Below are positions 1 through 58,877 of a DNA stretch of 64,000 nucleotides, one piece after another. Location: assembly GCA_016185755.1 (NCBI GenBank), contig JACPMX010000016.1, forward strand, positions 985-64,984, read 5' to 3'. Below the pieces are notes generated by a model. The model saw only the letters and a program-made list of their open reading frames with translations. It had not been told where the DNA came from and made no database searches. The position numbers were made by a program, and so were the translations under genes. Source of the DNA: Candidatus Woesearchaeota archaeon. GTDB lineage: Archaea > Nanobdellota > Nanobdellia > Woesearchaeales > GW2011-AR4. How positions within the stretch are numbered: the stretch's first letter is position 1; the number at the start of each line of letters is the position of its first letter.

Positions 1-1053
1 ACACATTCCACTTATTTCGGCTTGTTTTTTGCATTGTACATCATAACTAAAATTGTTCTGGAAAGAAAGCTGCCCGGATGGCACATCGCTGCAGGCATTC
101 TGGGACTGGCATTGTCTTTCGCTGTTTGGTGGCTCCCGATGATTTCCGCTTATGGGTTTGAAGGAACGCTTGAAGGGCTTGGGTTCAGCGTAGGCCGCCT
201 GGGCGAGCTTGGCATCAAAAAATCTTTGGGCGGAACTGGCGACAGGGCTTATACATTTTCTGACTTCTTTTTTGCACAAAAGCAGAACATGATAAACAAT
301 CCGATAGGAATAGGGGTCGTTCTCTCACTTTTAACGCTGGCAGGAATAATATTCCTGATTTTAAAATATAAAAGCCTATTGAAGCAGGAAAGCCACTGGC
401 TTGTGATTTCCCTTGTATGGCTGTTTTTTACGCTCTATGCCGTCAATGCTGACAGGTTTCCCATAAAGCTGTCGCCTTTCAGGGCATGGATGCTGCTGGC
501 AATACCGGTGTGCATATTTGCAGCTGAAGGTGCGCACGGCATCCTGGAGCTCTCAAAAAAATGCGCAGGCAGGATAGGGATGTATATTCTGCTGGCCTTA
601 CTATTGACAGGTATATATTTTACATCGGCACAGCAGAAGATAGCCGTAAACACGGCAACATGGCCGCCAGGGGCATTCTGGAGCTATGCGCAGGACAGCT
701 CAGGAAGGGTATATTCGCCTGAGCTGCAGAGCTATGTATGGATGAGGGAAAACCTTCCGAAAAACTCAAAAGTGTTCACATTTGCAAATAACGGCCCGGT
801 TATAGGAATGGATATGCACACATGCCACTGGTGCAAGGATGTCATAGACTACCAGGAACAGGGCTTTAAGAAAAATGCGCAGGAAAACTACAACTGGCTT
901 AAAAATAACGGCTATGGCTATATCATAATAGACGGCCAGACTGCCAAGAAGTTCGGAGCCAACGAGTCAAATGCAAAAATACAGGAACTGGGCCAGTCAG
1001 GCATGTTCAGGCCTGCGCTTCAAAATCAAGGAGCAATTATATTCAAGATTTGA
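1..1053 (+). CDS. 5'-partial polytopic membrane protein with a C-terminal soluble (extracytoplasmic) domain. It is GT-C-like and paralogous to 48883..50496 and 52501..54141
   Basis: The ORF runs open from the window edge (a TTG was used as start by the track). Several hydrophobic helices are followed by a C-terminal domain whose motif WMRENLPKNSKV...YIIIDG resembles WILQNVPSSANV...YIMIDY in 48883..50496. No WWDYG motif, so it is not a canonical AglB/STT3. Confidence 0.45.
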   Translation, partial: THSTYFGLFFALYIITKIVLERKLPGWHIAAGILGLALSFAVWWLPMISAYGFEGTLEGLGFSVGRLGELGIKKSLGGTGDRAYTFSDFFFAQKQNMINNPIGIGVVLSLLTLAGIIFLILKYKSLLKQESHWLVISLVWLFFTLYAVNADRFPIKLSPFRAWMLLAIPVCIFAAEGAHGILELSKKCAGRIGMYILLALLLTGIYFTSAQQKIAVNTATWPPGAFWSYAQDSSGRVYSPELQSYVWMRENLPKNSKVFTFANNGPVIGMDMHTCHWCKDVIDYQEQGFKKNAQENYNWLKNNGYGYIIIDGQTAKKFGANESNAKIQELGQSGMFRPALQNQGAIIFKI

Positions 1054-1055
1054 GA

Positions 1056-2546
1056 ATGACAAACTACACAAAAAAGGCACTGAAGAATTTTGGAATCATC
1101 TTTTTCATCTCCCTAGTTGCAGCTTTTTTCGGATATTTGGTGAGGGTATATTTTGCAAGAAGCCTTACAGTGGAGGAATTTGGGCTTTTCTATGCCGTGC
1201 TCGCTTTTTTGGGGATATTCGGAATTTTCAAAGGGCTCGGAATGGACGCGGCCTTGGCTTATTTTATCCCCAAGCTGAAGGCAGAATCAAAATTTAAAGA
1301 CGTCAAAAATTCAATAGCATACGCTGGCATTTTCTTGCTTGTGAACAACATTATTTTCATGCTGCTTGTCCTGGCTTTTGCGGACTTTTTGGGCATAAAC
1401 TATTTCAAGCACAAGCTTTCCGCAATGGTTTTGGTTTTCATGGCGATAGGCCTCTTCATAGACAGCTTTGTGCTCCTGATAAAATATGCTTTCCAGGGCT
1501 TTCAAAAAATGGAGATGTTCTCCAGCATAGACCTGGTAAGAATGATTTTAATACTGATTTTCTCGTTTATATTTTTCAAGCTGGGATTCGGAATTTTGAG
1601 CCCGGTTTTATCTTATATCCTATCCCCTTTAATGTTGGTATGCATATACCTTCCTTACCTATACAAGGAAAATGACAGACTATCATCAGGCAACAGATTC
1701 TTCTGGGACAAGAAGTTAGCCAAATCCCTGGCATCTTACGGCATGCACCTGACTTTTCTGTCGTCAGCAGGAATGATAATAGCATATTCTGACAGGATAA
1801 TGCTGACATTCTTCAGGTCGCTTGAAGAAGTTGGAATATACAGCGCAGTATTTCCGACTGCCATGCTGCTCTGGTACATACCGGATGCATTGTCAAAGGT
1901 GCTTTTGCCCCTGTCTTCTGAATTATGGAACAAAGGCCTGAAAAAAGAGATTGAAGAGGGATTAAGGCTGCTTTACAGGTATTCCATGATTATAATGCTT
2001 CCGGCATCTTTCCTGATACTTGCATTCTCCAAATTCATTTTAGAGCTGTTTTACGGGGCTGATTACTCTTCCGGAAGCGCGGCACTGCAGGTGCTGGCTG
2101 TAGGCATGATATTCTACAGCGTGCACAAGCTAAACAACAACGTGTTCCTTGGCATGGGAAAGCCGCAGATAAACACCAAAGTGACTATAATCGGGGCAAT
2201 AGCAAACATAATACTTAATTTTTTGCTGATCCCGCCTTTCGGCTTTCTCGGGGCATCCATAGCGACGATGTCGGCCTTTTTTTTGATGATGGGCGTGGGG
2301 TTTTATTTCCTTAAAAAAGCGGAAGTCACAGACATCCCTTACTTTCCATTGCTGAAGACCTTTTTTGCCTCCATGATTTTCCTGGCTGCAATTTACTATC
2401 TCAATCTCCGGCTTATTATGGGAATATTTATAAAAATCCCGCTTGTAGTATTCCTATCAGGGTCAATTTACATTGCGCTGCTGTTTGCGCTTAAGCTGCT
2501 GACTATTGTGGAGATAAAAGGGCTGATAAAAAGGCTCAAATCATGA
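1056..2546 (+). CDS. wzx: Wzx-like polysaccharide/oligosaccharide flippase (MOP superfamily, polysaccharide biosynthesis protein family)
   Basis: About 12 predicted TM helices. The N-terminal region (ARSLTVEEFGLFYAVLAFLGIF) is typical of PF01943/PF13440 O-unit flippases. ATG at 1056 is preferred over the TTG at 1050. Confidence 0.7.
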   Translation: MTNYTKKALKNFGIIFFISLVAAFFGYLVRVYFARSLTVEEFGLFYAVLAFLGIFGIFKGLGMDAALAYFIPKLKAESKFKDVKNSIAYAGIFLLVNNIIFMLLVLAFADFLGINYFKHKLSAMVLVFMAIGLFIDSFVLLIKYAFQGFQKMEMFSSIDLVRMILILIFSFIFFKLGFGILSPVLSYILSPLMLVCIYLPYLYKENDRLSSGNRFFWDKKLAKSLASYGMHLTFLSSAGMIIAYSDRIMLTFFRSLEEVGIYSAVFPTAMLLWYIPDALSKVLLPLSSELWNKGLKKEIEEGLRLLYRYSMIIMLPASFLILAFSKFILELFYGADYSSGSAALQVLAVGMIFYSVHKLNNNVFLGMGKPQINTKVTIIGAIANIILNFLLIPPFGFLGASIATMSAFFLMMGVGFYFLKKAEVTDIPYFPLLKTFFASMIFLAAIYYLNLRLIMGIFIKIPLVVFLSGSIYIALLFALKLLTIVEIKGLIKRLKS

Positions 2547-36885: not shown

Positions 36886-37017
36886 AAGACTCTTGGCTGG
36901 TTTATAAATTTTTGTGCCATAGATTCCAACTGCCGTTTAGAAAGATTTAAATATGATTATTCGTCCTTGTTTCAATTGGTATAACTCTATAAACTTAATT
37001 TGAATCCTGGCCCTAAA

Positions 37018-43649: not shown

Positions 43650-44618
43650 ATGAAATATCCTTTTATATCTCTTGTTGTAGTAAATTACAATGGCGAAGAG
43701 ATAATCGGGAAATGCCTTAGTTCTTTGGTTAAAGCTGATTACCCCAAAAACAAGTACGAGATTATTGCTGTTGACAATGCATCTACAGACAATAGCCTTT
43801 CAATCATCAAGGGATTTCCCAAAGCTAAAATAATACGAAACAAAACAAACCTTGGCTATGTGGGGGTAAATTCCTGCCTGGGCAGGGCAAGGGGAAAATA
43901 CATATTCGTGCTGAACAATGACCTTGAGATGGAAAAGAAATGCCTGAAAAAGGCAGTTGAAGCAATCGAGAAGGACAATTCAATTGGTGTCATTGCCCCT
44001 AAGTTCGTCAATTATTACAGCAGAAACGTCGAGTCAAACGGCACGTGGGTTTCAAGGTCATTCTACACAGGCCATTACATCGACAGGAATGAAGAGCAGA
44101 AAGCAAAGGAAATCCCATACCTTGGCATTGAGATGATAAGGGCAGATATAGCGAAAAAATTCGGATATATCTATGACAAGGATTATTTCATTTACGGGGA
44201 AGACTTGGACCTTTCCTTGCGCTTCAGGCTTTTGGGGTATAAGACAATGTACGTTCCTGATGCAGTGATATACCACATGCACGCTGCCACGACAAAAAAG
44301 AGCAGAAGCCATAAGATGACTTTTTTACTGGAGCGGAACTTGCTGATGACCTACTTCAAAATACTGTCTTTTAAGAATACTCTCCTTTTTTTCCCATATG
44401 TTTTTTCCATGAGGATGATTGGGATATTAAAGGATATCCTGACGCTTCAGCTTATGAATGCCTTTGCAAGGATAAAAGCAATTTTTTGGATAGCTGCACA
44501 TTTCCCGCTTGTAATGAAAAAACGGAAAAAAATTCAGGGAATGAGGAAAAAAACAGACAAATTCTTGCTTGAAGTATTCAGCGAAAAGCGCCTTTTTGGG
44601 AGAAAAACTAATCTCTAA
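43650..44618 (+). CDS. GT2-family glycosyltransferase
   Basis: ISLVVVNYNGEE...IIAVDNASTDNS...VLNNDLEME (DxD / GT-A). Confidence 0.75.
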   Translation: MKYPFISLVVVNYNGEEIIGKCLSSLVKADYPKNKYEIIAVDNASTDNSLSIIKGFPKAKIIRNKTNLGYVGVNSCLGRARGKYIFVLNNDLEMEKKCLKKAVEAIEKDNSIGVIAPKFVNYYSRNVESNGTWVSRSFYTGHYIDRNEEQKAKEIPYLGIEMIRADIAKKFGYIYDKDYFIYGEDLDLSLRFRLLGYKTMYVPDAVIYHMHAATTKKSRSHKMTFLLERNLLMTYFKILSFKNTLLFFPYVFSMRMIGILKDILTLQLMNAFARIKAIFWIAAHFPLVMKKRKKIQGMRKKTDKFLLEVFSEKRLFGRKTNL

Positions 44619-46071
44619 GCGAATAAATCTCGGTTTTTGAATCCTGGTTCCTGTAAACAAGGCTTTTTTTCCTTATAGAGCCGAGAACGCCTTCAGGAGT
44701 CTTCGCCCTCAGCCTGTCAACAGCGAAATCCTGGTTTACAAATGCATACCTGGCTTTTCCGATATTTTCCTGCTTTGGCCACACCTGAAGCCTGCCAAGA
44801 TAGAATGACATGCACTGGCCGCCTGCCATGATCAGGTCGCTTTCCTGCGTGTTTGCCTTTACCCATTCAAAATCTTGCTGGTAAAAATCCCAGCTCTGCC
44901 TTGCCAGCCTGAATTTAAATGCCTCTGTGCCGATGAAGCCTGCAGATATTATGATTAAGAGAATAAAAAATATTTTTCCTGCTGGCTTGCCTGCAATCCT
45001 GCCCATGCCGATGCCGTAAAAAAATGCAAGCGCAAGGAATGACGGCATGAGCATTCTTGATACAAATGCCCCTACATTTGAGACGTAAAGGAAGAAAAGC
45101 GGGACAAAAGAAGCCAGCAATACATACCATATCATGCGGCTTTTGCCTTTCCCGAGGCCGAAGAACAGCGGAATGAGGAAAATTATTGTCGCCATGATGT
45201 AAATGCCCAGCAATAATGCAAAGTTTGGCAAATTTGCAAAGAAAAGCGCATTGTAGTTCCCGTCAGGAACGCCAAAAAAGCCAAGGTAAAGCGCAAGGTA
45301 GGTTCCTTTCGAGATTATGTTTTCAGCTGCAAAGTCAAGGTAGGAATGCATTTCCATTCCATGGAAAATGTTGTTCATGAAAGGCCATATGGGGTTTCCC
45401 ATGCTGAGCCAGTTCCTTAAAAGCCATGGTGAAGCTATTATCCCCGGCATTATGGCAACAAAAAACAGATTTTTCAGCAGCCCATTTTTTCCGCTTTTTT
45501 TCCATGCAATGTAAGCCAATACGGGAATGAGGAAAATGCCGTTGTTCTTTGTCAGCATTGCAAGCCCAGTTGCCGCTCCTGCAAGAAAAAACCTTTTTTC
45601 CAGTGCAAGGTAAATGCCTGCTGCAAAGAGGAATGTAAGGACAGATTCAACGTAGCCAAGCACGTTGTAGTCTATGTACAGCGGAATGAACGAAAGAAAG
45701 AATATCGCATAAAATGACTGTTTCTCATCGAGCATCTTGCGGAAAAGGAAATATGCAACTATCAAAGTGAGGCTTCCGAACAATGGCGACACCAGCTTCA
45801 ATCCAGTCTCTCCAAATACAAGATAAAAAGCAGCTGCGATGAAATGGAACAACGGGGGAGGCCAGAACGGCTCGTCCCTCCCGACCCCGTCAAAAAGCGG
45901 GATTTCCAGATTTTCTGCCATGAACCTTGCCGCAGACAGGTGCCAGCACGCGTCTCCTGAAACAGCGTAAACAGAAGTTAATGCAAACCTCAGGATTATT
46001 GCTATAACTATTGTTATTAAAGCGTATTTTTCGTATTTACTGATAGTTTTTAATCTTGAAATTAGTTTCAT
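44608..46071 (-). CDS. GT-C fold polytopic membrane glycosyltransferase (PMT_2/ArnT-like)
   Basis: 487 aa with more than 10 TM helices. Last gene of a minus-strand string with GT9, Dpm1-like GT2 and GT4. Confidence 0.5.
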   Translation of the reverse strand: MKLISRLKTISKYEKYALITIVIAIILRFALTSVYAVSGDACWHLSAARFMAENLEIPLFDGVGRDEPFWPPPLFHFIAAAFYLVFGETGLKLVSPLFGSLTLIVAYFLFRKMLDEKQSFYAIFFLSFIPLYIDYNVLGYVESVLTFLFAAGIYLALEKRFFLAGAATGLAMLTKNNGIFLIPVLAYIAWKKSGKNGLLKNLFFVAIMPGIIASPWLLRNWLSMGNPIWPFMNNIFHGMEMHSYLDFAAENIISKGTYLALYLGFFGVPDGNYNALFFANLPNFALLLGIYIMATIIFLIPLFFGLGKGKSRMIWYVLLASFVPLFFLYVSNVGAFVSRMLMPSFLALAFFYGIGMGRIAGKPAGKIFFILLIIISAGFIGTEAFKFRLARQSWDFYQQDFEWVKANTQESDLIMAGGQCMSFYLGRLQVWPKQENIGKARYAFVNQDFAVDRLRAKTPEGVLGSIRKKSLVYRNQDSKTEIYSLRD

Positions 46072-47081
46072 TTTTTGAGCAGGCTTATTACCGCATTTGA
46101 GAATGCTTCAACATCATTCTTTTTCACCAAAATCCCGCTCTTCACGATTTCCGGGTGCGAGCCTATTGCAAAAGCAACAACTTTCCTGCCGCAGGCCTGG
46201 GCTTCTGCAGCCGGAAGGTTGAAGCCTTCCCACAGTGAAGCTGTAACGTACAGGTCGCATGCAGCATAGTAATAAGGCAGCTCCCTGTCTTCTATAAACT
46301 CCCTGAAAATGACATTCTTGTTTGCATGGCTTTTCAGCTCATTGTAATACCTTTTGAAAGTTGGCTTGCCTGCAACCAGCAGTTTAGCGTTTGGCAGCTT
46401 GCCATTTACAATATCAAAAATTTTCAGGAGAGTATGGACGTTTTTATGGGGAGAAATCCTTCCAATAAAGAACAATAATTTTTCATTGGCTTTTATTCCC
46501 AATTTTTTTCTTATTTTTGCCCCGTCAATGCCTTTTTTGTACCTGCTGTCAAGCTTATTGTATTTAACCTCGCTTTCAATCCCAGTTTCCCTTTTCAGCT
46601 CGTCCCTCAAAAATTTGCTTACGGAGAATGCAGAGTCTACATTGCTTATTGACATCTTATTGAAGCAGGCAAATAAGCTCATGTACAATCTTTCAAACAT
46701 ATTTGTGAACAATTCGCTGTAGCCTATGCCGTGGTTATGGTAAATGTACTTCACTCCAAACTTTTTTTTGGCACTTGAGGCAATTAGGTTCATTGGGTAA
46801 AAATGGGATATAATAATATCAAAATCTTTCAGCTTATTGACAGCTTTGCTGAATTTTATAAAATCCAAAAAGAAAAACAGCCTGTACAATCTCTGCAAAA
46901 ACAGGCTTTTTGGCATCCCTATGACTTCAAGCTTAAACCTCCTAGGCTTCAAGTCCGCTTCCAAGGCAAATACTGTAACTTTGTTTCCCTTCCTTGAATG
47001 ATCCATTGCCTGCTGCTCCACAACCCTGTCTATGCCGCTGTAATGCGAGAATGTAGGCGTAAGAATTGCTATTTTCATCAA
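46068..47081 (-). CDS. GT4-family (GT-B) glycosyltransferase
   Basis: C-terminal FIGRISPHKN...ASLWEGFNLPAAEAQACGRKVVAF (E-X7-E region). Confidence 0.75.
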   Translation of the reverse strand: MMKIAILTPTFSHYSGIDRVVEQQAMDHSRKGNKVTVFALEADLKPRRFKLEVIGMPKSLFLQRLYRLFFFLDFIKFSKAVNKLKDFDIIISHFYPMNLIASSAKKKFGVKYIYHNHGIGYSELFTNMFERLYMSLFACFNKMSISNVDSAFSVSKFLRDELKRETGIESEVKYNKLDSRYKKGIDGAKIRKKLGIKANEKLLFFIGRISPHKNVHTLLKIFDIVNGKLPNAKLLVAGKPTFKRYYNELKSHANKNVIFREFIEDRELPYYYAACDLYVTASLWEGFNLPAAEAQACGRKVVAFAIGSHPEIVKSGILVKKNDVEAFSNAVISLLKK

Positions 47082-47794
47082 ATCCCACCAACCACTTTCA
47101 AAATTTTCAGCTTCAAAACCATGAAATACCCTGACACAAGCTGGGGAATCCCGAGCTTTGAACGGCCTTTTGTCCTGTTTACGAAGGTTATGGGTATTTC
47201 CTTTATCCTGAATCCCTTCAAATGCGCCTTGAAAAGCACTTCCTGGACTATTGAGGGGCCTTTTGACTGGAGCTTTTCAGGCTTTATAGATTCCAGAACT
47301 TTCCTTTTGAAGCACCTGAAGCCGGAATTGCAGTCCATGACTTTCAGCCCAAGAACAGCCCTTATGTAAAGGTTTGCGCCAAATGTAACAAGCCTCCTGA
47401 ATGCGCTTCTTCCAATCTCATCGCCTCCCCGGACCCTTCTTGAGCCAAGGATTAAATCAGCGTTTTTCAATTCATTAAGCATGATGGGAATATATTTAGG
47501 GTCATGCGACATGTCGGCATCCATCTCGACAACAGCATCAGCCCCGTGCTTCAGGCAGTATATGAAGCCGTCTTTTCCTGCAGAGCCCCTTCCCTTGTCC
47601 TTTTTCCTGAGCAATAGATGGACATTTCTGTTTTTTTTTGAAATTGCCTCAACAATTTTTGAAGTGCCATCCGGGCTGCTGTCATCGGCAACAACAACAT
47701 GGAGATTTTTTATTTTCAGCTTCAGTATTTTATCTATCAAATTGCCTATGTTCTCGCTTTCATTGTAGGTTGGAATCATTACAAAGGTTTTCAT
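47078..47794 (-). CDS. Dolichyl/polyprenyl-phosphate mannose (hexose) synthase-like GT2
   Basis: FVMIPTYNESENI...VVVADDSSPDGT...VVEMDADMSHDP is a close match to Dpm1/GtrB-type enzymes. Confidence 0.8.
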   Translation of the reverse strand: MKTFVMIPTYNESENIGNLIDKILKLKIKNLHVVVADDSSPDGTSKIVEAISKKNRNVHLLLRKKDKGRGSAGKDGFIYCLKHGADAVVEMDADMSHDPKYIPIMLNELKNADLILGSRRVRGGDEIGRSAFRRLVTFGANLYIRAVLGLKVMDCNSGFRCFKRKVLESIKPEKLQSKGPSIVQEVLFKAHLKGFRIKEIPITFVNRTKGRSKLGIPQLVSGYFMVLKLKILKVVGGI

Positions 47795-48801
47795 TTTTTA
47801 ATCAGCTTCTTGACAGCCTTGACAAACTCATCAACATCCCATTCTGGAGGATAGTCGCATTTGGGCTTGTACGAGCAATAGTCTTTTCCTTTCCCCATGA
47901 TTTTTATTCCCCTGCCGTATAATTCAATTTCTGCACTGCTAGTTGGATAGAAAAAAGCCGCAACTTTCTTCTTCAATGCAACCCCGATGTGCAATGCAAG
48001 GCTGTCGCTTGTTACCAGAACATCGCACAAATTAACGAGAGAGACAAACTCCATCAGGGAATTGCTGCAGCCAGCGTCTATAACTCCTGTTCCGGCAAGC
48101 TTCTTTATTTTTTTATTTCTTTCCATCTCTTCAGGCCCGCCGAACAAAATTGGCCTTGCGTTTTTTATCTGCATGTTTAACTTATCAATCAGCTCCGCTG
48201 TTTTTTCAATGCTTAATTTCTTGTCTTCCCACCTGCCTCCAGCCCCTGTATTGATCCCTATGGCAAAATCTGATTTTCTAATGCCGTGCTTTTTGGCAAA
48301 CCTGCCTCCAAAATCCAGCTCTTTCCTGCCTAAAGCCAGCATCGGCTCCTGCTTCAGGTATTTTAGCCCGAGAATCCTGTACATTATTTCAGGATAGGTT
48401 TTTTTGTTTTTTGCCTTCAGCAAATCCGCTTTCCGCTTTCCAAGCCTTGAAATCAGGCCCATGTCAAACCAAGGCGAAGAATTGTCTGTATACATTCTTT
48501 TGCCGTTTTTCAGACATGAGCCTATAATCTTTTTGGATGGCATACTTGATGCCAGCTCGCAGGCCTCATAGTCATCGTCCAGGCTTATGAGAATGTCGTA
48601 TTTCTTATGCCTCAGCTTTTCAGCATCTTCAATCAAGTAGATTTTGCCTATCAAGCCATTGTTTTTCAGGAAGCCGGCAGAGCCCTTTTTCGTGGCCCAG
48701 TCTATCCTGCAGCCCCCGTATTTTTCCTTAAGGCCAGGAAGCACAGCGGTTGTCCTGATTACATCGCCCAATGCGCCGAGCTTGATTATGAGTATTTTCA
48801 T
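47791..48801 (-). CDS. GT9-family glycosyltransferase (ADP-heptose:LPS heptosyltransferase fold)
   Basis: MKILIIKLGALGDVIRTTAVLPGLK is the classic GT9 N-terminus, with C-terminal GGPEE...SDSLALHIG. ATG 48801 is preferred over the TTG at 48846. Confidence 0.7.
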   Translation of the reverse strand: MKILIIKLGALGDVIRTTAVLPGLKEKYGGCRIDWATKKGSAGFLKNNGLIGKIYLIEDAEKLRHKKYDILISLDDDYEACELASSMPSKKIIGSCLKNGKRMYTDNSSPWFDMGLISRLGKRKADLLKAKNKKTYPEIMYRILGLKYLKQEPMLALGRKELDFGGRFAKKHGIRKSDFAIGINTGAGGRWEDKKLSIEKTAELIDKLNMQIKNARPILFGGPEEMERNKKIKKLAGTGVIDAGCSNSLMEFVSLVNLCDVLVTSDSLALHIGVALKKKVAAFFYPTSSAEIELYGRGIKIMGKGKDYCSYKPKCDYPPEWDVDEFVKAVKKLIKK

Positions 48802-48882
48802 CAGCAGCAATAAACCTGAGCCTATTTTAAAGCTTTTCTTTACCAAAAATATTTATAAAGCCGGCTTCCTGACTATAGCCTG

Positions 48883-50496
48883 ATGAAATTAAACAAGAAC
48901 TACATCCAGACTTCCATATTCATAGCCCTATACCTTTTCGCCATTTATTTCTGGACGCAGCCGCTGCAGGAAAGAAAGCTGCCTTACGGGGAATATGACG
49001 CAATGTCCCATTTTGAAGTTGCCGATTACATGGCATACAATGACAGATCCTTCATGAAATTGCCTGACTACATCGACTTGAGGTACGGCCTCGACAACAA
49101 ATACAAGCCCCATACACTGTGGTATCCTCCCCCATTCCATGCATCGCTTGGGGTGGCTGAGACGATCGGTGGGGAAAGAATAGTGCCTGTATTTTTGCTC
49201 AACACTGTCATGTCAACATTCATCATGATAAGCGTTTATTTTGTAATAAATTCATTGTTCGGGTTTTTGCCGGCCATCCTGTCATCGCTGCTGCTGGTTT
49301 TTTCACCAAGGGACTTCATGCCATATTTATGGGGGCAGTGGCCGGAAAGGTTTGCTTATGCACTTGTCCCGATAATCCTGTACTGCTTTTACATGTATTT
49401 CACCAGCTTTTCAAAAGAAGACAAGAAGCCAATTTACCTTTACATGGCTGCACTGTTCCTGGGAATAAACATATTAATCCATCCTCTTGTGTTTTTCCAT
49501 TCAGCTGCAGGACTGGCTTTGCTTTACATTTTCCTGTCCATAAAGCAGAAAAAGCTTGTTTTTGAGTGGAAGCATATTGCTGTTTCTGCAATGATTTTTC
49601 TGGCATTGTTTTTGCTCTTTCCATACCAGACATTCAACATATTCCCGAAATTCACAGGAAGCGAAGAAACTGGGGAAGCAAACCCTTTTGACCTGTCAAG
49701 GCTGTTCCAGTGGTCATTAAACCCGGCAGATTATGCAGGAAGCGTGCCTCCAAGTTATTTTTCATTCAGGGATATGCACGGCCTCTGGACTTTGCCGCTT
49801 TTGCTGGCCGGCATACTGTTTTTGGCTTGGAGAAGAGAGGAAAGAGACCTGCTTTTGATGGCATGGCTTGCAAGCCTTTACATTGTGCTGCACAGGGATT
49901 TGATAGGGCAGGCATCATTTTTGCACAGGTCATTGTCAGCCTCTGCCCATATATTCGCCCCATTGGCTGCGATTGGCGCAGTTTACCTTGCTTCAATCAT
50001 AAAGCTGCCTTCAAATTTAAACAAGTACCTGAAATACGGCATCGCAGCTGCTTTTGTTTTTCTTGTTATTTCGGTAAACATGGCATACGCGTCAAAATTG
50101 CTGAACAAGGACACTTACAATGATTTTTTCGGCACTTTGAACAGGGAGGAGTTTGAAGCGGCAGAATGGATTTTGCAAAATGTGCCCAGCTCTGCAAATG
50201 TGACTGTACTTGGAATTCCTCATGAGCCTGACAAAGTATTGTCTGTAACTTCCAAAAAAATAAGATGGCTTGCAGCTGCATCGCAGCATGTTTCAAGGTT
50301 TTACTATCTAAGGGAAGACCAGGAGCAGATTTTGAAATCAAAAGACTGGTACATAATGATTGACTACACAATGCTCGGCCCCCTAAATGACAGGCAGACT
50401 TTTGAAAAAATGCAGAAGTTTGAAAAAGAGTCTTTAATTAAACATAAGTTAGTTTATGACAAAAACAGCATAAAGGTGTATAATCTTGAAGATTAG
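48883..50496 (+). CDS. GT-C-like polytopic membrane protein with C-terminal extracytoplasmic domain (paralog of 1..1053 and 52501..54141)
   Basis: 537 aa. The N-terminal loop PYGEYDAMSHFEVADY (compare PYGYFASDAFQHQTRVEW in 52501..54141), about 11 TM helices, and C-terminal WILQNVPSSANVTVLG...YIMIDY. Confidence 0.45.
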   Translation: MKLNKNYIQTSIFIALYLFAIYFWTQPLQERKLPYGEYDAMSHFEVADYMAYNDRSFMKLPDYIDLRYGLDNKYKPHTLWYPPPFHASLGVAETIGGERIVPVFLLNTVMSTFIMISVYFVINSLFGFLPAILSSLLLVFSPRDFMPYLWGQWPERFAYALVPIILYCFYMYFTSFSKEDKKPIYLYMAALFLGINILIHPLVFFHSAAGLALLYIFLSIKQKKLVFEWKHIAVSAMIFLALFLLFPYQTFNIFPKFTGSEETGEANPFDLSRLFQWSLNPADYAGSVPPSYFSFRDMHGLWTLPLLLAGILFLAWRREERDLLLMAWLASLYIVLHRDLIGQASFLHRSLSASAHIFAPLAAIGAVYLASIIKLPSNLNKYLKYGIAAAFVFLVISVNMAYASKLLNKDTYNDFFGTLNREEFEAAEWILQNVPSSANVTVLGIPHEPDKVLSVTSKKIRWLAAASQHVSRFYYLREDQEQILKSKDWYIMIDYTMLGPLNDRQTFEKMQKFEKESLIKHKLVYDKNSIKVYNLED

Positions 50497-50836
50497 CAAC
50501 GGGCAAAAGGAAATTGCAGCATTCTCTTCCATTATCCTATTGGCATGCCTTATTTTCTCATTTGTGCTTTTTGGCATTGCAGGCGTAAGGGTTGTTTTTG
50601 GGATAGTGCTTGTGTCATTGCCATTTTACCTTATTTTAAACAATTTCGAGTTTAACGAATCAGAAAAATTTGTATTTTCAATCCTGCTGGGGCTTACAGT
50701 ATTCCCCTTGCTTGCCTATCTGCTGGGATTCATCACAAGCTTCAAATGGGCAATAGCAATAACTTTTGTTCTGTTGATGGCTGCAGCATTCATGCCGAAG
50801 ATGAAGAAATTAATTATTTCTTATGGGAAAGTATAA
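50486..50836 (+). CDS. Small 3-4 TM membrane protein (paralog of 52164..52520), coupled to the upstream GT-C-like gene
   Basis: TTG start overlapping the stop of 48883..50496. Hydrophobic segments; the C-terminal half resembles that of 52164..52520 (GLTVFPLLAYLLGF / GIAVSLAVAGIASYYLGVFG). Confidence 0.4.
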   Translation: MKISNGQKEIAAFSSIILLACLIFSFVLFGIAGVRVVFGIVLVSLPFYLILNNFEFNESEKFVFSILLGLTVFPLLAYLLGFITSFKWAIAITFVLLMAAAFMPKMKKLIISYGKV

Positions 50837-50988
50837 ATACTAGCTTTAACAGGAAATTTTTGGGGGTGTAAAATTTGCTTTTAAGAATAGGTGTTAGCCT
50901 GTTTTATTGTACGTAAAGTTCTTTTTTCCAAATAGCATATTCTCCGTCAGAAAAACTTTTATAATTTCTGAAACTTTGAGGTGATTTT

Positions 50989-51228
50989 ATGTACTCTGTA
51001 AGGCAAATCATAAAGGAAAACTGGAAATCTTATCTTAAAACACATAGCCCTACAGCCCATCAAAAAGAAGAAATTCAGAAGATGATTGACTGCTCAAAGA
51101 ATAGCTGCAACAGCAGGATATGCAGCTCCTGCGGGAAAAGATATGCTGACGATTGGGCAAACAATCTTGTAAACGCCTATGCCCGCTTCCATGCAAGGCA
51201 TGTGGTTTTGACAACCCCTTCTTTCTAA
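50989..51228 (+). pseudogene. Truncated IS91-family transposase (N-terminal zinc-binding domain fragment only)
   Basis: SCNSRICSSCGKRYADDWANNL...HARHVVLTTPSF parallels IS91 TnpA SCRNRHCPRCQGLRRAQWL...YFHVVFTLP. The ORF stops after 79 aa where full-length TnpA is about 400 aa. Confidence 0.5.
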
Positions 51229-51388
51229 GGCCTGTTTTAAGGAATCTTGGCATCTTAATGAGTTCTTCAAAGGATTTGGCTCGGTAGGGTGTAGTGAAAT
51301 CTCGGCTTGGCAGGCTTTTTTTAATAGAAAAGTTTAAATACAAGATTAATCTTATTTGTCTTATTAACAAGATAAGTGGAGGTCAAAA

Positions 51389-51649
51389 ATGGGAACAATA
51401 ATTGAAATGGGAAAAATTAGTTCAAGGGGACAGATTGCAATCCCTGCGGATATAAGGGAACAATTAGGTTTAGATGAAGGGACAAAAGTCTTGTTCTTTA
51501 CCGAACAGGATACTTTGATGATGAAAAAGGTAACAGAACAAAGCTTTGCTCAGATAACAAAGCCTTTAAAATTAGCAGCAAAACAGGCTGGCTTAAAAGA
51601 AGAAGATGTTCCAAATATTGTCCAAAGGTTTAGGAAGAAGAAAAGATGA
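51389..51649 (+). CDS. AbrB/SpoVT/MazE-type antitoxin
   Basis: ISSRGQIAIPADIREQLGLDEGTKV is a swapped-hairpin AbrB-like domain. GGAGGT SD-like sequence upstream. Overlaps the PIN gene by 4 nt. Confidence 0.7.
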   Translation: MGTIIEMGKISSRGQIAIPADIREQLGLDEGTKVLFFTEQDTLMMKKVTEQSFAQITKPLKLAAKQAGLKEEDVPNIVQRFRKKKR

Positions 51650-52062
51650 AAATAACCGTAGATACAAATATTCTAGTCTCAGCTACATTTTGGAATGGAG
51701 CTTCTGATAAAATAATTTCCAAAGTCGAAGCAAAAGAAATAGAATTAGTGTTATCTGCAGAAATTCTAAATGAGTATGCTGGAGTTTTGGAATATGATGA
51801 AATCAAGAGCAAAATAAAAGACAAGAATTTGGAAACTAAAAGAACTATAAGCAAGATTATAGCCATATCATCCATTATCGAGCCAAAGATTAGACTAAGT
51901 GTAATAAAAGATGACCCAGATGATGATAGAATATTAGAATGCGCAATTGCGGGAAGAGTAGATTATATTGTAAGCAGTAATAATCACTTACTGAAGTTGA
52001 AAACTTATGAAGGTATACAAATAGTAACTCCGCAAGAATTCTTAGACAAATTATCTAAGTAG
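51646..52062 (+). CDS. PIN-domain toxin (VapC-like)
   Basis: MKITVDTNILVSA...DDPDDDRILECAIAGRVDYIVSSNNHLL contains the conserved acidic PIN residues (D6, E/D cluster). Confidence 0.75.
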   Translation: MKITVDTNILVSATFWNGASDKIISKVEAKEIELVLSAEILNEYAGVLEYDEIKSKIKDKNLETKRTISKIIAISSIIEPKIRLSVIKDDPDDDRILECAIAGRVDYIVSSNNHLLKLKTYEGIQIVTPQEFLDKLSK

Positions 52063-52163
52063 CCAAATCGAATATATGACGGCTTTGCAAATATTATACA
52101 AATAAAAACACCATCTAATAACTAACAGCGAATAATAAAAAAGGAATTTAACATTACTCAGGC

Positions 52164-52520
52164 CTATTTCCTCAAATTAATAATTGCCCCCATTAAAATC
52201 AAAATCAACGGCAGTATTACAATATGGTGCTTTATGTCCAGCCCAAAAACCCCAAGGTAATAGCTTGCTATGCCTGCAACAGCCAGCGAAACTGCGATGC
52301 CAATCACAAATCTCTCGGCAAAATCAAGCTTTTCATGCCAGTAAAGCGTCAGGAAATAGCCCGGCAATGCGAACAGCCAGAATAAGGCCAAAACAGCCCT
52401 TGCAGCGGAAATAAAACCCCCCCTGTAAAACATTATCCAGAAAATAACTATAAATAATACTAAAAGCGCCGCTATATTCAGCAGTTCCTTTTTCATCCTA
52501 TCAAAAATTTCTTTCTTCAA
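52164..52520 (-). CDS. Small 3-4 TM membrane protein (paralog of 50486..50836), downstream of a GT-C-like gene
   Basis: 118 aa, hydrophobic. Overlaps the end of 52501..54141 by 20 nt (translational coupling). Confidence 0.4.
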   Translation of the reverse strand: MKKEIFDRMKKELLNIAALLVLFIVIFWIMFYRGGFISAARAVLALFWLFALPGYFLTLYWHEKLDFAERFVIGIAVSLAVAGIASYYLGVFGLDIKHHIVILPLILILMGAIINLRK

Positions 52521-54141
52521 TGCAATCCTCCCCCGGATTTTTGTTTTTCAATATGACTACCAGCTGGTTTTCAAAAACAGGGCTTATAAAATTCTTCTTG
52601 AGCAGCTCGTTTGCCAATAATAAGTTGTACTGGGCAAAAGCCTGCTGCCCTGAAGTTTTGTCAAAAACAAGATAATCAAAACTGCAGATATCCTTTTTTC
52701 CTGACAAATCATTCCTGATGTCATCTGCTGCAAAATGGAATGAAAAGAACGATGGCCTCTGGACCGCACCCCCGCCACCATCCCCAGGCATCTCAGTCTC
52801 GTAAAACCTTCTTAACTCTCTTTTGCTTATGGCATCGGCATAATCTTCAGGCACAATAAGCCCATGCAGCCTTTTTGCATTTCTCAGCACGGCATCCTGG
52901 CCGTACATGTCGCCATAAAAAAAGTATACCCTGGCGCTGTTATCAGTGCTTTTGCCGAGCCATTGAAAAGCCTGCCAATGAAAATTGTCCATAATCCCCT
53001 GGGCTGTCATTTTTTTGTAGCCTGGGATGAATGCAAAAGAGGCTGTTGTTAAAACTATAATAAGCGCAACAGAGGCTATAACAGAGTGCAGGATTTTCCA
53101 GTTTCTATATAATGTATTGGCAATATAAAAAATCCCCAATCCTAAAAGAAACGAAAGGTAAACCGGCCAGAAAAATCTCAGCTGGAAAGCTCTTGTGTCA
53201 AAGCCGATATAGTTGGTGTAGCTGAACAGCAGCATTGACGCTGCAATCACAAACGGAAGCATGTCTTTTTTCCTAAGCCAGGTAAGGGACACTATAATCC
53301 CTGCTGCAAAAAATACCAGCAGCAACCCAAAATCGCCGAAAAACATCAATGGAGCATCCCATGCCCTTTTTATGGAAAGCTCGAAAGGCTGCCTGACTGC
53401 CCACACAAGCTTGAATATAACAAGGAAATTGAACGTCGCAACGACAGTTATTATCGAGCCGTACACTGCATTTTTTATAATTCCAAGGCTGAATTCTTTC
53501 CGCAGCAGCTTATAAGCGAGAAATATGGCAAAGAACATTGCCGCGAAAATGGCCTCGGCAGTATGCGTCAGGATTATTGCGCTCAGGAACACGGCAAAGA
53601 AGATGAATGAATGTTTAAGGTCAATGTTTGCCGCATACCAGAAAAATGCAACAAGGAAGAACTGGGACAATAAGGATGGCCAGTGTCCCCAAGTAAAGCC
53701 TGTATAAATGCCGTTGTAGAACAAGAGCACAGCCAAAGGCATGGATAAAATTGCGACATTTTTGCTGAAGTTCCTGATTATGAAGTACATCACAATGGCT
53801 GCAATAGCAGCTGCAAAGAAAACCATGAACTGCAGAGTGTCGTATGTTTCAAGCCCGCTTGCGTATGACAGCAGCACGCTTAAATGGTATATGACCGGCG
53901 GATAATAGCCTATGACATCCCTGATGCCAAATACTATGTAAGGAGCCTCGTTTCTATAGTTTCCTTCATCCTTTATCCACTCGACCCTTGTCTGGTGCTG
54001 GAAAGCGTCAGAGGCAAAATATCCATAAGGAAAGTCATGGCCCAGGCTGTGGTCCACAAGATTGGCATAGCCCAGAAATAGCAATAGGGAAAATACAGAG
54101 ATTAGGTAGATGTTTTCAAGGTCCAACTTTAAGTTTAGCAT
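52501..54141 (-). CDS. GT-C-like polytopic membrane protein with C-terminal extracytoplasmic domain (paralog of 48883..50496)
   Basis: 546 aa, more than 10 TM helices. C-terminal QAFQWLGKSTDNSARVYFFYGD...SFDYLVFD parallels the C-terminal domains of the two paralogs. Confidence 0.45.
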   Translation of the reverse strand: MLNLKLDLENIYLISVFSLLLFLGYANLVDHSLGHDFPYGYFASDAFQHQTRVEWIKDEGNYRNEAPYIVFGIRDVIGYYPPVIYHLSVLLSYASGLETYDTLQFMVFFAAAIAAIVMYFIIRNFSKNVAILSMPLAVLLFYNGIYTGFTWGHWPSLLSQFFLVAFFWYAANIDLKHSFIFFAVFLSAIILTHTAEAIFAAMFFAIFLAYKLLRKEFSLGIIKNAVYGSIITVVATFNFLVIFKLVWAVRQPFELSIKRAWDAPLMFFGDFGLLLVFFAAGIIVSLTWLRKKDMLPFVIAASMLLFSYTNYIGFDTRAFQLRFFWPVYLSFLLGLGIFYIANTLYRNWKILHSVIASVALIIVLTTASFAFIPGYKKMTAQGIMDNFHWQAFQWLGKSTDNSARVYFFYGDMYGQDAVLRNAKRLHGLIVPEDYADAISKRELRRFYETEMPGDGGGGAVQRPSFFSFHFAADDIRNDLSGKKDICSFDYLVFDKTSGQQAFAQYNLLLANELLKKNFISPVFENQLVVILKNKNPGEDCIEERNF

Positions 54142-54142
54142 T

Positions 54143-56455
54143 TTATATCGTTATCGTTAAATTTCTTGAGTCCGTCAAGCTGTTGTTTCTTGCGGTTGCA
54201 TTTACATTATACGTTCCACTTGCTGTGAAATTGTAATCTATATAAATAAACATCTGCTCGCTCGGCTGCAATATGCTTGATATTGTGCTGTTTATTATAT
54301 TGCTGTTATTGGTGTTCAAGGACCAGTTTACGCCAGTTAGATTTATATTCAGATTGTTTTTTATTACAAATTCAAATATTCTTTTATTTCCTGATTCATT
54401 TACTATGCTTAAATTAAACGCTTCCAGGTGCTTAATATCAAGATTTAATGTTTTTGAGTCTGAATATGTTTGGTTTGTAACAGTAGCCACAAGGCTGTAA
54501 GTGCCGCTAGCCCCATAGTCATATTTTACGAATATAAAGATTGTCTCGTTAGGCTGGATAGATGCAAACTGGCTTGTTGAGTTTATAATACCATTGTTTC
54601 CAGTTGTTAAAGACCAGTTGACATTGGTTATATTGCTTTCCAAATTGTTTTTAGCCTGTATTTCAAAAATTACTTTGGCAACATCCGTATTTACATCATC
54701 AAAGCTTGTTATTGCCAAATCCCCTACTCCAATGCTGGAGCTTAAAGAAGAGCTTATTATAGTTGATTGGCTCAATCCGGTCGCATTTGCTCTTATATTG
54801 TAAGAGCCTTCATCCGAGAAATTGTATTGTACATATACAAAAGCCCTTTCATTCACAGCCAAGGAGCTTATATTGGAAGTGCTGTTTATTATGTAGCTGT
54901 CATTCGTGTCAAACCACCATTGTACATCGGTTACTGCTGTGTCTCCGTCATTCAGAATAACAAATTCAAAGATTTTGAGTGTACCATTGGTGTACATTGC
55001 GGTTATAGATTCTATAGCTAAAGAAACAATTGTTGGAGGAGTATTCTGCACAATGTTGTTGCTTTCGTTGCTTTCATCAACCAGATTGTCGAAGTCTGCT
55101 ATGGCTGTGAACAGGGTTATATTGGATGTATTGCTTACTATAAAATTATAAATTTGTGATTCGTTAACATTTAGTATCACAGTACTATTTATAGCTGAAA
55201 AAGTTTCATTGTTAAAAACATCAAGGAATACATTAAAAGCTGTTGACTCTCCAGTATTATTGAGTTTTATTGTAACATTAGATTGATTTGTTGTCTGGTT
55301 GAAAATTACAGTCATATTCAGTTTCAAATCAGGCAAAGGCGGCCTTTCAAAATCTGTATAAGTTAAATTTGTTATTGTATGCGGCTCAAACTGCTTGTCT
55401 GTAATATTCCCATTTTCTATTAGCCTTGTGACACTTAATATATATGGACCGCTTATCTTTGCAGCATAGATGTCAGAGCCATTTATTCTTATGCTTACAG
55501 TCTGATTTCCAATAGACAAGCTTTGTGATGCAGACAGATTTTTGACAAAATTGTTGAATTGGTCATACATTTCAGCTTGTATTTCATAAGTATTTGTGCT
55601 TTTAACTGCTACAGTAAAGTTTACTTCCAGAAACTCCGACAAATTATTTGCATTAGTATCTATGCCAGTGCTGCTATAGTTTCTAAAGTAAGAAGTTTTT
55701 GCAAAGTCTTCATAATTATAAATTGATGTTGAATATGATGGCTTAATAAGTTTTCTGCCTATTAACACAGAGTCCAATGTAAAGTTTCCAGTGTAATGGG
55801 TGGATTTTATAGTCTCATTGTCAAAATCCAATGAAATTGTTTGCAATCCAGATGATAAGGTTACTTGTTTTGTTGCGCTAATTATAGTTTCATTAAATTT
55901 CAAATATGCAGTGATATTTGCATCTTGATTTTGGGAGACATTGAGTGTTAAGTTTATTCTAATATGATTGCTGTTTAAATTCTCATCTGTTATTCTGTTT
56001 ATATTTGTGCCATTACCAAAACCGCTGTAAGTGTTTGTCTCTATATTGTACTTGCTGAAAACCAGAATATTCGTTGTGTTATAAATTCTTACAGAATAAT
56101 TATACTTATTTTTGGTTAATAAGCGAGTGTCAAAGCTTATATTGACGTTGGATATACCTGAAGAAATGCTTTGATTAATCCTGTTGGACAATGTTCCGCT
56201 TTCTTCTGACAAATCAAAATAAACTTCGAAAAAAGCAGTGTAAGTTGAGTTTACGGTGATATTTATAATCAATGTATCGTTCTGTCCATTTGAGTTAGAA
56301 TCCAACATGTAATCAGAAAACTGATTAATATTAAGTGTACCATCATTATAGCCAAAATTGTAAGAGTCTATTAGTTCTTGAAGTGTTATCGAGTAGGCAG
56401 ATGGGACTAGTAAAAATAAATATAATAACCATATAATTAGATTTTTACACTTCAT
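54143..56455 (-). CDS. Secreted, sequon-dense surface protein (candidate S-layer / cell-surface glycoprotein)
   Basis: Signal peptide MKCKNLIIWLLYLFLLVPSAYS. Very high Asn/Thr/Ser content with dozens of N-x-S/T sequons (NQSI, NISF, NTTN, NGTN, NLTL...). AT-rich coding sequence. Confidence 0.55.
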   Translation of the reverse strand: MKCKNLIIWLLYLFLLVPSAYSITLQELIDSYNFGYNDGTLNINQFSDYMLDSNSNGQNDTLIINITVNSTYTAFFEVYFDLSEESGTLSNRINQSISSGISNVNISFDTRLLTKNKYNYSVRIYNTTNILVFSKYNIETNTYSGFGNGTNINRITDENLNSNHIRINLTLNVSQNQDANITAYLKFNETIISATKQVTLSSGLQTISLDFDNETIKSTHYTGNFTLDSVLIGRKLIKPSYSTSIYNYEDFAKTSYFRNYSSTGIDTNANNLSEFLEVNFTVAVKSTNTYEIQAEMYDQFNNFVKNLSASQSLSIGNQTVSIRINGSDIYAAKISGPYILSVTRLIENGNITDKQFEPHTITNLTYTDFERPPLPDLKLNMTVIFNQTTNQSNVTIKLNNTGESTAFNVFLDVFNNETFSAINSTVILNVNESQIYNFIVSNTSNITLFTAIADFDNLVDESNESNNIVQNTPPTIVSLAIESITAMYTNGTLKIFEFVILNDGDTAVTDVQWWFDTNDSYIINSTSNISSLAVNERAFVYVQYNFSDEGSYNIRANATGLSQSTIISSSLSSSIGVGDLAITSFDDVNTDVAKVIFEIQAKNNLESNITNVNWSLTTGNNGIINSTSQFASIQPNETIFIFVKYDYGASGTYSLVATVTNQTYSDSKTLNLDIKHLEAFNLSIVNESGNKRIFEFVIKNNLNINLTGVNWSLNTNNSNIINSTISSILQPSEQMFIYIDYNFTASGTYNVNATARNNSLTDSRNLTITI

Positions 56456-58660: not shown

Positions 58661-58877
58661 TGATATAATTATTTTTCTCGTCAGTTTCTGCTATTATGAA
58701 AAATATATATGTGGTATTATATTCAAATATTGGTTTGGTGGTATATTCAAAAGAATAAATTAACAATATTATAATTGAATTATTTTCATTAGCGTATGAA
58801 GTGGAGGATAAGGTAATTAATGTTATACTAAATAATAAAATTAACTCCAGTACTTTTATAATTTTTTGTTTAGTCAT
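57117..58877 (-). CDS. Secreted alpha/beta-hydrolase (lipase/esterase-like) protein. It carries the shared N-terminal domain and is paralogous to the C-terminal 515 aa of 59148..63473
   Basis: Signal peptide. VVLGHGVFGD (oxyanion HG) and VGYSLGGGL (GxSxG nucleophile elbow). About 75% identity to the C-terminal region of the 1441-aa protein. Confidence 0.55.
   Translation of the reverse strand: MTKQKIIKVLELILLFSITLITLSSTSYANENNSIIILLIYSFEYTTKPIFEYNTTYIFFIIAETDEKNNYIKKAARPATKAYIDIVTDYPVLTSVINNYLDDYIDIVSSGQDVNIYVGRKNSNLPKDLQKTDNKNWKYENNIITYTSKSEGLPYNGLVVKDGTNIYVFGNEIDGDIAALRKLVDNQEFYFSKSVSSRADYISEEDLDGLFVFDYLHTDENQAKYRKNNENFRKVVENVLNSDVTSLSIKRVLTANDNTSLRLKNINAELSVKYKNFSNPRPVVLGHGVFGDLFSLEKLANKIAKDNAFNGKYVRDVWLIEYTGGPNTECSTCPNYDYNTLKTYYWPALLGGVLKYSNKNSVDYVGYSLGGGLALDSYTQYYQGTSNTIGYYLNDSGNWTTFNLSANFVDHMVLLAPMGTFNGTTRFTAIIDRHGNQTKSALSQYNHISQKNISDSINKVCKWYEIDCKLLHLVTQSDGVVSYNLWIDIQNRVINKSDSNPSLTSINKLLLVRSRLGGFSDDGVIPDTDIQSIYQNSNSTKKYKAAIVDIHASMADFPGTYYLISAFLNDVTYSRFDKIVWSIEED

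Follow-up and report, generated by a model that had tools for sequence, protein, structure and literature searches.

The 64,000-nucleotide stretch of DNA analysed here as a whole (the window) belongs to contig JACPMX010000016.1 of a Candidatus Woesearchaeota archaeon (assembly GCA_016185755.1). It carries two genes for large membrane proteins, A and B, each followed by a gene for a small membrane protein, a and b respectively. The analysis presented below indicates that A+a and B+b are probably split, two-chain glycosyltransferases of the GT-C fold, of the type catalogued in Pfam as DUF6541 (PF20176). The argument involves a third large protein of the same window, C, whose orthologs carry a module resembling the small chains fused to their GT-C core. 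This module, fused in C and separate beside A and B, follows the Rosetta-stone pattern, which is read most simply if each small chain binds its own large chain as the detached equivalent of the module of C; such an association would be predicted from sequence comparison. The region as a whole is best explained as a two-gene unit present twice, in copies that diverged long ago, within a glycan-assembly cluster conserved in the Woesearchaeota.

The genes A (48883..50496, + strand, 537 residues) and B (52501..54141, - strand, 546 residues) start with ATG and are intact. Both small genes start with TTG. The start codon of a (50486..50836, + strand, 116 residues) lies inside the 3' end of A, with an overlap of 11 nucleotides, and that of b (52164..52520, - strand, 118 residues) inside the 3' end of B, with an overlap of 20 nucleotides. 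Each start is preceded by a Shine-Dalgarno-like motif, AAAGGTG within A at 9 nucleotides from the TTG of a and GGGGGAGG within B at 7 nucleotides from the TTG of b, and the N-termini of the orthologous small proteins begin at the same positions. The initial annotation, made from the sequence without database searches, had described two convergent pairs (A-a -> <- b-B) with overlapping stop and start codons, in which a membrane protein of 116 or 118 residues directly follows each large one; the coordinates of the open reading frames (ORFs) bear this out, and each small protein has four transmembrane segments. Only the C-terminal 350 residues of C, the third, fused-type paralog, are encoded in the window (1..1053, + strand), in a frame that is open at the window start, and the N-terminal loop of this protein lies outside.

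The architecture proposed beforehand for the large proteins, about 11 transmembrane helices followed by a soluble C-terminal domain, is found again in AlphaFold2 models and hydropathy profiles. The first helix spans residues 5-25 in A and 7-28 in B, and the C-terminal domain, alpha/beta and external, comprises about 115-160 residues (421-537 in A, 385-545 in B). The models are of medium quality, with a mean pLDDT (predicted local distance difference test) of 68 for A and 74.9 for B: the helix bundles and the C-terminal domains are modelled with confidence, unlike the long external loops. When the models were compared with the PDB using Foldseek, A was closest to STT3 (E 2.4e-6) and ArnT (1.5e-5), then to ALG12, AglB and AftA, and B to STT3 (2.3e-6), then to PglB, AglB, AftD, DPY19, AftA and ArnT. 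Every match with E <= 1e-3 is a GT-C enzyme (STT3, PglB, AglB, ArnT, AftA, AftD, DPY19, ALG9 or ALG12), with TMq values of 0.36-0.52 and TM-scores of 0.4-0.5 for the top matches. On the basis of these models, the assignment of A and B to the GT-C fold, already suspected in the initial annotation, can be taken as solid but generic.

The Pfam family DUF6541 is matched by A with 45.9 bits, over profile positions 102-486 of 646, so that A does not cover the whole model in one polypeptide. The C fragment reaches 31.7 bits, the gathering threshold being 29 bits, and some orthologs of B carry a precomputed PF20176 match. The suggestion of a novel family can therefore not be retained for the large proteins, since A and C lie above this threshold; they belong to a catalogued, uncharacterised GT-C family. 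No characterised family was matched end to end. A also has a PMT_2 match of 26.5 bits, borderline with respect to the cut-off of 26.1. In GenBank, A and its relatives bear the names 'glycosyltransferase family 39 protein', 'DUF6541 family protein' or, for some relatives, 'hypothetical protein', and the first of these labels is an over-annotation of A, as it rests on this borderline PMT_2 match. Neither PMT (PF02366) nor MIR domains were matched by A, and B matched none of PMT_2, PMT and MIR. The NCBIfam models added nothing for the large proteins, and searches of PDB sequences by phmmer with single sequences and by profile hidden Markov models (HMMs) yielded no relatives of any of the four families (A, B, a and b).

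An acidic residue in the first external loop after the first transmembrane helix is the hallmark catalytic position of GT-C enzymes, as in PglB, ArnT and PMT. In A, this loop reads PYGEYDAMSH, with E37, D39 and H43 invariant, and the aligned segment of B is PYGYFASDAFQH, with D44, Q47 and H48 invariant; the invariant acidic residues lie 12-19 residues past the first helix. The corresponding segment of the C orthologs is YPYLEDDDSWSH, and the EDDD of these orthologs is aligned by hhalign with E37/D39 of A and D44 of B. By analogy with the known enzymes, E37/D39 and D44 are presumed to be catalytic. The large proteins also carry WGQWPE at residues 150-155 of A and WGHWP at 150-154 of B. The motifs W[ILM]..N...[AS].V...G and Y[IL].[IF]D of the C-terminal domain align among the large proteins. 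The N-loop and C-domain motifs noticed earlier are thus real, and they are mutually aligned in the profile comparisons.

The kinship of the three large proteins is visible at the level of family profiles, but not in pairwise BLASTP comparisons, where no significant match was obtained (E 0.058 for A/B, 0.059 for A/C and 0.017 for B/C). The A and B families align end to end by hhalign, with a probability of 98.2% (E 4.6e-14, 452 columns), at an identity of only about 20%. Residues 104-625 of the C family align with residues 2-532 of A (94.4%, E 9e-8) and 5-532 of B (96.4%, E 1.2e-9). The same holds for the small proteins: BLASTP gives no significant match between a and b (E 7.1), but their family profiles align over 110 columns with 93.1% probability (E 3.3e-7), at about 24% identity. 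With another column setting, the values are 66.6% and E 5e-5. A phmmer search with b also finds two a proteins, with E of about 1e-4. The earlier claims that the large proteins are three paralogs, and the small ones two, therefore stand by profile comparison and fail by direct comparison of the sequences. As to C, its grouping with A and B holds for the collinear core, but its architecture is different, with 3 + 11 transmembrane segments in a fused protein, of which the window shows a fragment. No DNA-level inverted repeat linking A-a and b-B was found, which rules out a recent inverted duplication of the pair, so that any duplication must be ancient. On these profile comparisons, A-a and B-b would be ancient duplicates that have co-diverged as units.

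The pairing was then considered across the Woesearchaeota. One genome per GTDB species was scanned, which gave 46 loci, and all six-frame ORFs of these loci were translated and searched with the proteins of the window. In the 44 assessable loci, those with sequence downstream of A, a homolog of a lies directly 3' of A in every case (44/44, E 1e-13 to 1e-33), with junctions ranging from an overlap of 29 nucleotides to a gap of one (-29 to +1), and the two were never seen apart in the loci examined. A convergent b-B pair is present near A-a in 37/44 loci (E for b 1e-25 to 1e-42). There, b follows B throughout, with start and stop codons that overlap or abut; the overlap ranges from 20 to 107 nucleotides when the longest-ORF starts are taken, and an overlap of 20 nucleotides recurs most often among the species. 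In 26 of these 37 loci, a and b end at most 50 nucleotides from each other, and inserts of 0.3-5.7 kb separate them in the other 11/37, a situation also found in the window. Even two distant homologs of A (67% and 55% identity) show the order A, small ORF, convergent small ORF, B. Three loci (L011, L028 and L046) contain A-a with no b-B within 4-6.6 kb downstream, which shows that loss or relocation of the B-b unit can occur.

The families are large. A shows 100% identity with a GenBank entry from a metagenome-assembled Candidatus Woesearchaeota genome and has 277 detected relatives, all the source names given being Woese-, Pace- or Nanoarchaeota, and B has 261, all named 'hypothetical'. The b family comprises 635 proteins with E <= 0.01 in a 90%-clustered database, and 370 cluster representatives in a filter-free profile search of 1.84 billion proteins; in a search for natural fusions, the best 150 of these 370 all measured 81-190 residues. 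Among the small proteins, residues remain invariant in orthologs that are 39-58% identical to b of the window, and likewise at 44-64% identity. The idea that a and b are merely non-coding frames overlapping the large genes could be entertained in view of their TTG starts, their short, hydrophobic sequences and their lack of a Pfam family. Its probability is practically nil: intact ORFs occupy the same positions in 44/44 and 37/44 species genomes, with E values down to 1e-33 and 1e-42, the family is represented by hundreds of clusters, Shine-Dalgarno-like motifs precede both starts, and residues are kept invariant across the divergent orthologs. The hypothesis of spurious ORFs is refuted by this conservation. 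That the small ORFs are genuine genes, conserved and each specifically tied to its own large gene, follows from the pairing kept in these loci and from the family counts. As a separate observation, several of the loci carrying this Woesearchaeota-type module are in metagenome-assembled genomes titled 'uncultured Methanosarcinales archaeon' (L009, L011, L015-L017, L019, L024, L039, L040, L042-L044 and L049). Their A proteins are 45-73% identical, and the 'Methanosarcinales' label on these records is probably wrong.

The charge distribution of a and b points to four transmembrane segments in an N-in/C-in orientation, with both ends cytoplasmic. The conserved motif of each lies in a cytoplasmic loop, F-x-x-x-E-K in a, with E60 invariant, and PGY...W.EKL.F.ER in b, and segments 2 to 4 (TM2-TM4) contain no conserved charged residues. 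Searches with the family members, against the copy of Pfam used here, gave no family above threshold for either protein. Below threshold, 7/35 members of the b family weakly match the N-terminus of DUF6541. In one ortholog of b, residues 49-112 match profile positions 3-64 (E 0.0046), and the match of A starts at position 102. This suggests that the DUF6541 model includes the same N-terminal module. Another profile, that of the archaeal family DUF1616 (PF07760), is matched over positions 4-109 of 307 by 21/35 members of b, at best with E 8e-4 and about 16 bits, which falls short of membership (gathering threshold 31.6 bits) and suggests, from sequence, a shared four-segment module instead. A b-type module may thus exist in fusion with another domain as well, probably an extracellular one.

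The fused form of the module is seen in full-length C orthologs of 603-625 residues, obtained from metagenomes (L052-L067) and 59-67% identical to C of the window. Ahead of the core that aligns with A and B, these proteins possess about 95 extra N-terminal residues with three transmembrane segments, in the order transmembrane segment, acidic E-x-F-x-E-R loop, segment, short loop, segment and basic linker, which is the layout of TM2-TM4 of a and b. An HMM of this C module was run, with filters off, against 1,599 six-frame ORFs from 50 loci and the window. The first eight places went to b proteins (E 3e-5 to 2e-3), and a or b made up 25 of the best 30. With a reversed profile as control, the best E was 0.3 and a/b accounted for 6 of the best 30; with eight column-shuffled profiles, the best E was 0.02-0.26 and a/b accounted for 0-4. 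The hhalign comparison of the C module gave 55-57% with a (E 1e-4) and E 1e-3 to 4e-3 with b, in the same register, and reversed controls gave E 0.02-0.07 over 11-31 columns. No free a/b-like ORF was found in the C-type loci. A fusion is compatible with the topologies, since the small chain ends, and the GT-C core begins, on the cytoplasmic side. On the strength of these profile matches, a and b appear to be the free-standing equivalents of the module fused in C. The dedicated small subunit imagined in the initial annotation thereby receives independent support.

If A+a and B+b are indeed two-chain enzymes, their operation can be pictured as follows. The small chain would pack against the GT-C helix bundle of the large one. 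A neighbouring Dpm1-like glycosyltransferase of family GT2 would probably make a polyprenyl- or dolichyl-phosphate sugar at the cytoplasmic side. This sugar would then be presented at the outer face, where the acidic site of the first loop would transfer it to the growing glycan chain of a lipid or surface protein. The external loops and the C-terminal domain presumably hold the acceptor. Within one conserved glycan, each pair would be responsible for a different sugar or linkage. The donor linked to a lipid phosphate is proposed by analogy with every characterised GT-C enzyme, and the nature of the donor and acceptor of both pairs is likewise inferred.

Several points weigh against the two-chain interpretation. 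B of the window has no Pfam match; the conserved external loops are of low confidence in both AlphaFold2 models, so that these do not give the geometry of the putative active site; the hhalign probabilities between the C module and a/b, 9-57%, are weak in absolute terms; and the N-terminal DUF6541 match of b does not reach the threshold. A simple fission of a C-type gene would have left the small gene ahead of the large one, whereas the observed order is large, then small. Lastly, the small chain may act transiently, for example as a flippase or a recruiter, instead of being a stable subunit.

This last point leads to the proposal that a and b are dedicated flippases of polyprenyl-phosphate sugars, analogous to ArnE/ArnF or GtrA/GtcA, and not structural subunits, each of them providing its own GT-C enzyme with the flipped donor. 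Such a role appears unlikely here, even if it is in part compatible with two-chain enzymes, a fused or bound flippase being conceivable. The gene layout is that of arnT-arnE-arnF in E. coli, where the stop codon of the GT-C gene overlaps the start of a 111-residue gene with four transmembrane segments, and a and b have the same number of segments in about 115 residues. Both pairs have conserved Dpm1-like GT2 genes as neighbours, and no further flippase accompanies the module with any regularity in related loci. The role of the GtrA family is itself debated, between flippase and anchor of a GT-C enzyme (PMC7389260). The C module has sub-threshold EamA matches in 5/10 orthologs (best E 1.1e-4, 22.9 bits against a cut-off of 28.2), but the five sequences are 63-85% identical to each other and these matches are not independent. 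In the small proteins themselves, no EamA, SMR or GtrA match was found in 80 members (45 a and 35 b), even at E <= 1, and membership of a and b in these three families was rejected on this count. Comparison by hhalign of E. coli ArnE and ArnF with the a, b and C-module profiles gave at most 0.5%, a weak test as single ArnE/F sequences were used; homology with ArnE/ArnF was rejected for lack of such a match. The conserved cytoplasmic loop, together with segments TM2-TM4 devoid of conserved charges, also speaks against a flippase, and a structural role accounts more simply for the covalent attachment of the module to the transferase in C. The four-segment module could also constitute an unrecognised class of flippases for dolichyl-phosphate (Dol-P) or polyprenyl-phosphate sugars, unrelated to GtrA, SMR/EamA and Wzx and physically coupled to its GT-C enzyme by binding or fusion, but this is decidedly improbable; carrier flipping and sugar transfer would in that case be channelled in one machine.

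Other proposals concern the large chains. That A and B are divergent oligosaccharyltransferases of the AglB/STT3 type, transferring glycans en bloc to protein with the small chains as accessory subunits, would agree with the STT3 chains being the top Foldseek match of both models (E ~2e-6, TM ~0.5), with the external C-terminal domain placed after the last transmembrane helix, and with the secreted 770-residue protein bearing 54 N-x-S/T sequons that is encoded directly upstream of B. This is nevertheless very unlikely. ArnT, Alg and Aft enzymes score almost equally, which makes the fold match a generic GT-C one, and the C-terminal domain is far smaller than in AglB. The absence of the WWDYG motif reported in the initial annotation was confirmed over whole families, the pattern WWD[YWF]G occurring in 0/48 A-family and 0/39 B-family proteins, and in none of C. 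Neither A nor B has a match to the STT3 Pfam family or to the NCBIfam model archaeo_STT3 (TIGR04154). The sequon-rich gene is not kept beside B in related loci and was consequently discarded as a conserved substrate gene. The candidacy as oligosaccharyltransferase-like enzymes is therefore not favoured by any evidence over that of ordinary GT-C transferases dependent on lipid-phosphate sugars. Still less credible, to the point of being almost dismissed, is a polymerase or ligase of the Wzy/WaaL type, an idea raised by the presence of multi-pass proteins in a polysaccharide locus with a Wzx-like flippase (1050..2546). The hallmarks of these enzymes had been found lacking by eye; indeed, no Pfam match to Wzy_C or O-antigen ligase was obtained, the significant Foldseek matches are all GT-C enzymes and include no WaaL or Wzy, and the Wzx gene is 46 kb away and not conserved beside C orthologs. 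Nothing points to a Wzy/WaaL function, and the glycan polymerase or ligase once suggested is not upheld. The two-chain, DUF6541-type GT-C enzyme remains the preferred interpretation of both pairs.

The surroundings of the pairs are rich in genes for glycan synthesis. Divergent from A lies a group of four genes (44608..48846, - strand), identified with Pfam as a GT9 (47791..48846), a soluble Dpm1-like GT2 of 238 residues (47078..47794), a GT4 (46068..47081) and a PMT_2-type GT-C enzyme (44608..46071). Their orthologs (E 1e-100 to 1e-167) occupy the same relative position in about 27, 20, 18 and 11 related loci, respectively, and a second Dpm1-like GT2 gene is often found directly upstream of B. 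The cluster formed by GT9, Dpm1-like GT2, GT4, PMT_2, A-a and b-B is highly conserved, and its product is probably a core glycoconjugate of the cell envelope in these episymbiotic archaea. The window as a whole is a glycan-biosynthesis island with five GT-C genes, the fifth, of PMT_2/PMT type, encoding 511 residues at 22790-24325 (- strand). Beside C, a flippase gene of the Wzx/MurJ type (MOP; 1050..2546, + strand) starts 4 nucleotides before the stop codon of C; this adjacency is seen in this genome alone and is absent beside C orthologs, and Wzx was thus rejected as a conserved partner of C.

Further genes of the island were noted in passing. The segment 41635-46071 recalls the gene set of the bacterial Arn (aminoarabinose) pathway, with an RmlD-like reductase/epimerase, a formyltransferase of the ArnA N-domain type, a PIG-L deacetylase, a GT2 of 326 residues and the PMT_2/ArnT-like GT-C protein, the latter with a weak match to Agl23 (TIGR03663). 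The product of this set may be an amino sugar, formylated or deacetylated, that is borne by a lipid carrier. Two radical-SAM genes are present, at 37000-38529 (with a B12-binding domain) and 39258-40451 (SPASM), and a protein of the sulfatase/phosphodiesterase type is encoded at 2583-4301. Upstream of B, a block of low GC content (0.29-0.36) encodes large secreted proteins on the - strand (54143-56455, 57117-58877 and 59148-63473). The 770-residue protein mentioned above, whose gene ends 2 nucleotides upstream of the start of B, has a signal peptide and its 54 sequons amount to 7 per 100 residues; another one, of 1,441 residues, has 47 sequons and is related to the one of 586 residues. To judge from these sequences, the large secreted proteins of the block probably sit at the cell surface and are heavily N-glycosylated. 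Their genes are not kept beside B in other genomes.

In the window, a and b are separated at their 3' ends by 1,327 nucleotides (50837..52163) that do not belong to the module. This insertion encodes an IS91-type transposase zinc-finger remnant (50989..51228, + strand; Pfam Zn_Tnp_IS91, 1.1e-12), a MazE/AbrB-type antitoxin (51389..51649, + strand; MazE_antitoxin, 3.4e-9) and a PIN toxin (51646..52062, + strand; PIN_3, 4.5e-20). Its GC content, about 0.36, is below that of the flanks (about 0.43), and the insertion looks mobile, placed as it is exactly at the convergent 3' ends. The a/b junction seems to be an insertion hotspot, since other inserts are found at this same spot in the 11 related loci described above.

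The products of GT-C enzymes include N-glycans, O-mannans, lipopolysaccharide modifications and mycobacterial cell walls. To our knowledge, the GT-C enzymes characterised in prokaryotes are almost all single polypeptides. Here, one genome contains two forms of such enzymes, one fused (C) and one split into a core and a four-segment chain translated on its own (A+a, B+b), and the split form is conserved throughout the Woesearchaeota, a DPANN lineage whose cell-surface chemistry has barely been explored. The literature searched contained nothing on DUF6541, on this module or on GT-C enzymes of Woesearchaeota/DPANN, and a search on the function of DUF1616 returned it only as the name of a Haloferax glycoprotein. 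The split/fused relationship of the module and the GT-C core thus appears to be undescribed. These pairs constitute a natural experiment on the role of the transmembrane module, be it to form a carrier-lipid groove, to stabilise the enzyme or to flip the donor. Were the module to prove a flippase, this would be relevant to the old question of which proteins flip Dol-P sugars.

Among known families, DUF6541, itself an uncharacterised GT-C-like family, is the closest, with A, C and some orthologs of B above threshold and a collinear transmembrane core. The differences are that A lacks the first 100 positions or so of the model, which are matched by b below threshold, and that B of the window is not recognised. 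STT3, AglB and PglB resemble A and B by their rank in the structural comparison and by their external C-terminal domain, and the eukaryotic oligosaccharyltransferase offers the idea of accessory small membrane subunits. A and B differ from them by the lack of WWDYG and of any STT3-family sequence match, by 11 instead of 13 transmembrane helices and by a much smaller C-terminal domain.

The ArnT-ArnE/ArnF system of E. coli (arnBCADTEF) has a comparable layout, a GT-C gene followed, with stop/start overlap, by a small gene for four transmembrane segments (about 110-130 residues), and the likeness of a and b to ArnE/ArnF is confined to this layout. The system also shares a nearby GT2 able to charge the lipid carrier, and ArnT is among the significant fold matches. 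ArnE and ArnF have no detectable sequence relation to a and b and form a pair, whereas each GT-C protein has one small protein here. We know of no fusion of the small module to the transferase in the case of ArnE/F.

A+a and B+b can also be likened to the three-component systems GtrA/GtrB/GtrC and CsbB/GtcA/YfhO. AglR of Haloferax volcanii is a large Wzx-like protein and differs in this from a and b, with their four segments. Bacterial glycosylation of this type combines a GT2, carrier flipping and an external GT-C enzyme, as in CsbB/GtcA/YfhO, and it is debated whether the mycobacterial Rv3789 (GtrA family), which acts with AftA, is a flippase or a recruiting anchor (PMC7389260). Like a and b, Rv3789 is a small protein with 3-4 transmembrane segments that accompanies a GT-C enzyme and is open to the same two readings, and AftA is a significant fold match of A and B; a and b differ by having no GtrA Pfam match, and the organisms are different. 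An archaeal precedent, finally, is provided by AglD/AglR/AglS of Haloferax volcanii, which are respectively responsible for the synthesis of Dol-P-mannose, its flipping, to which AglR has been linked, and the external transfer of mannose from this donor (PMC3871713): there too, a single sugar is added outside the cell by a membrane transferase from a separate dolichol-phosphate carrier.

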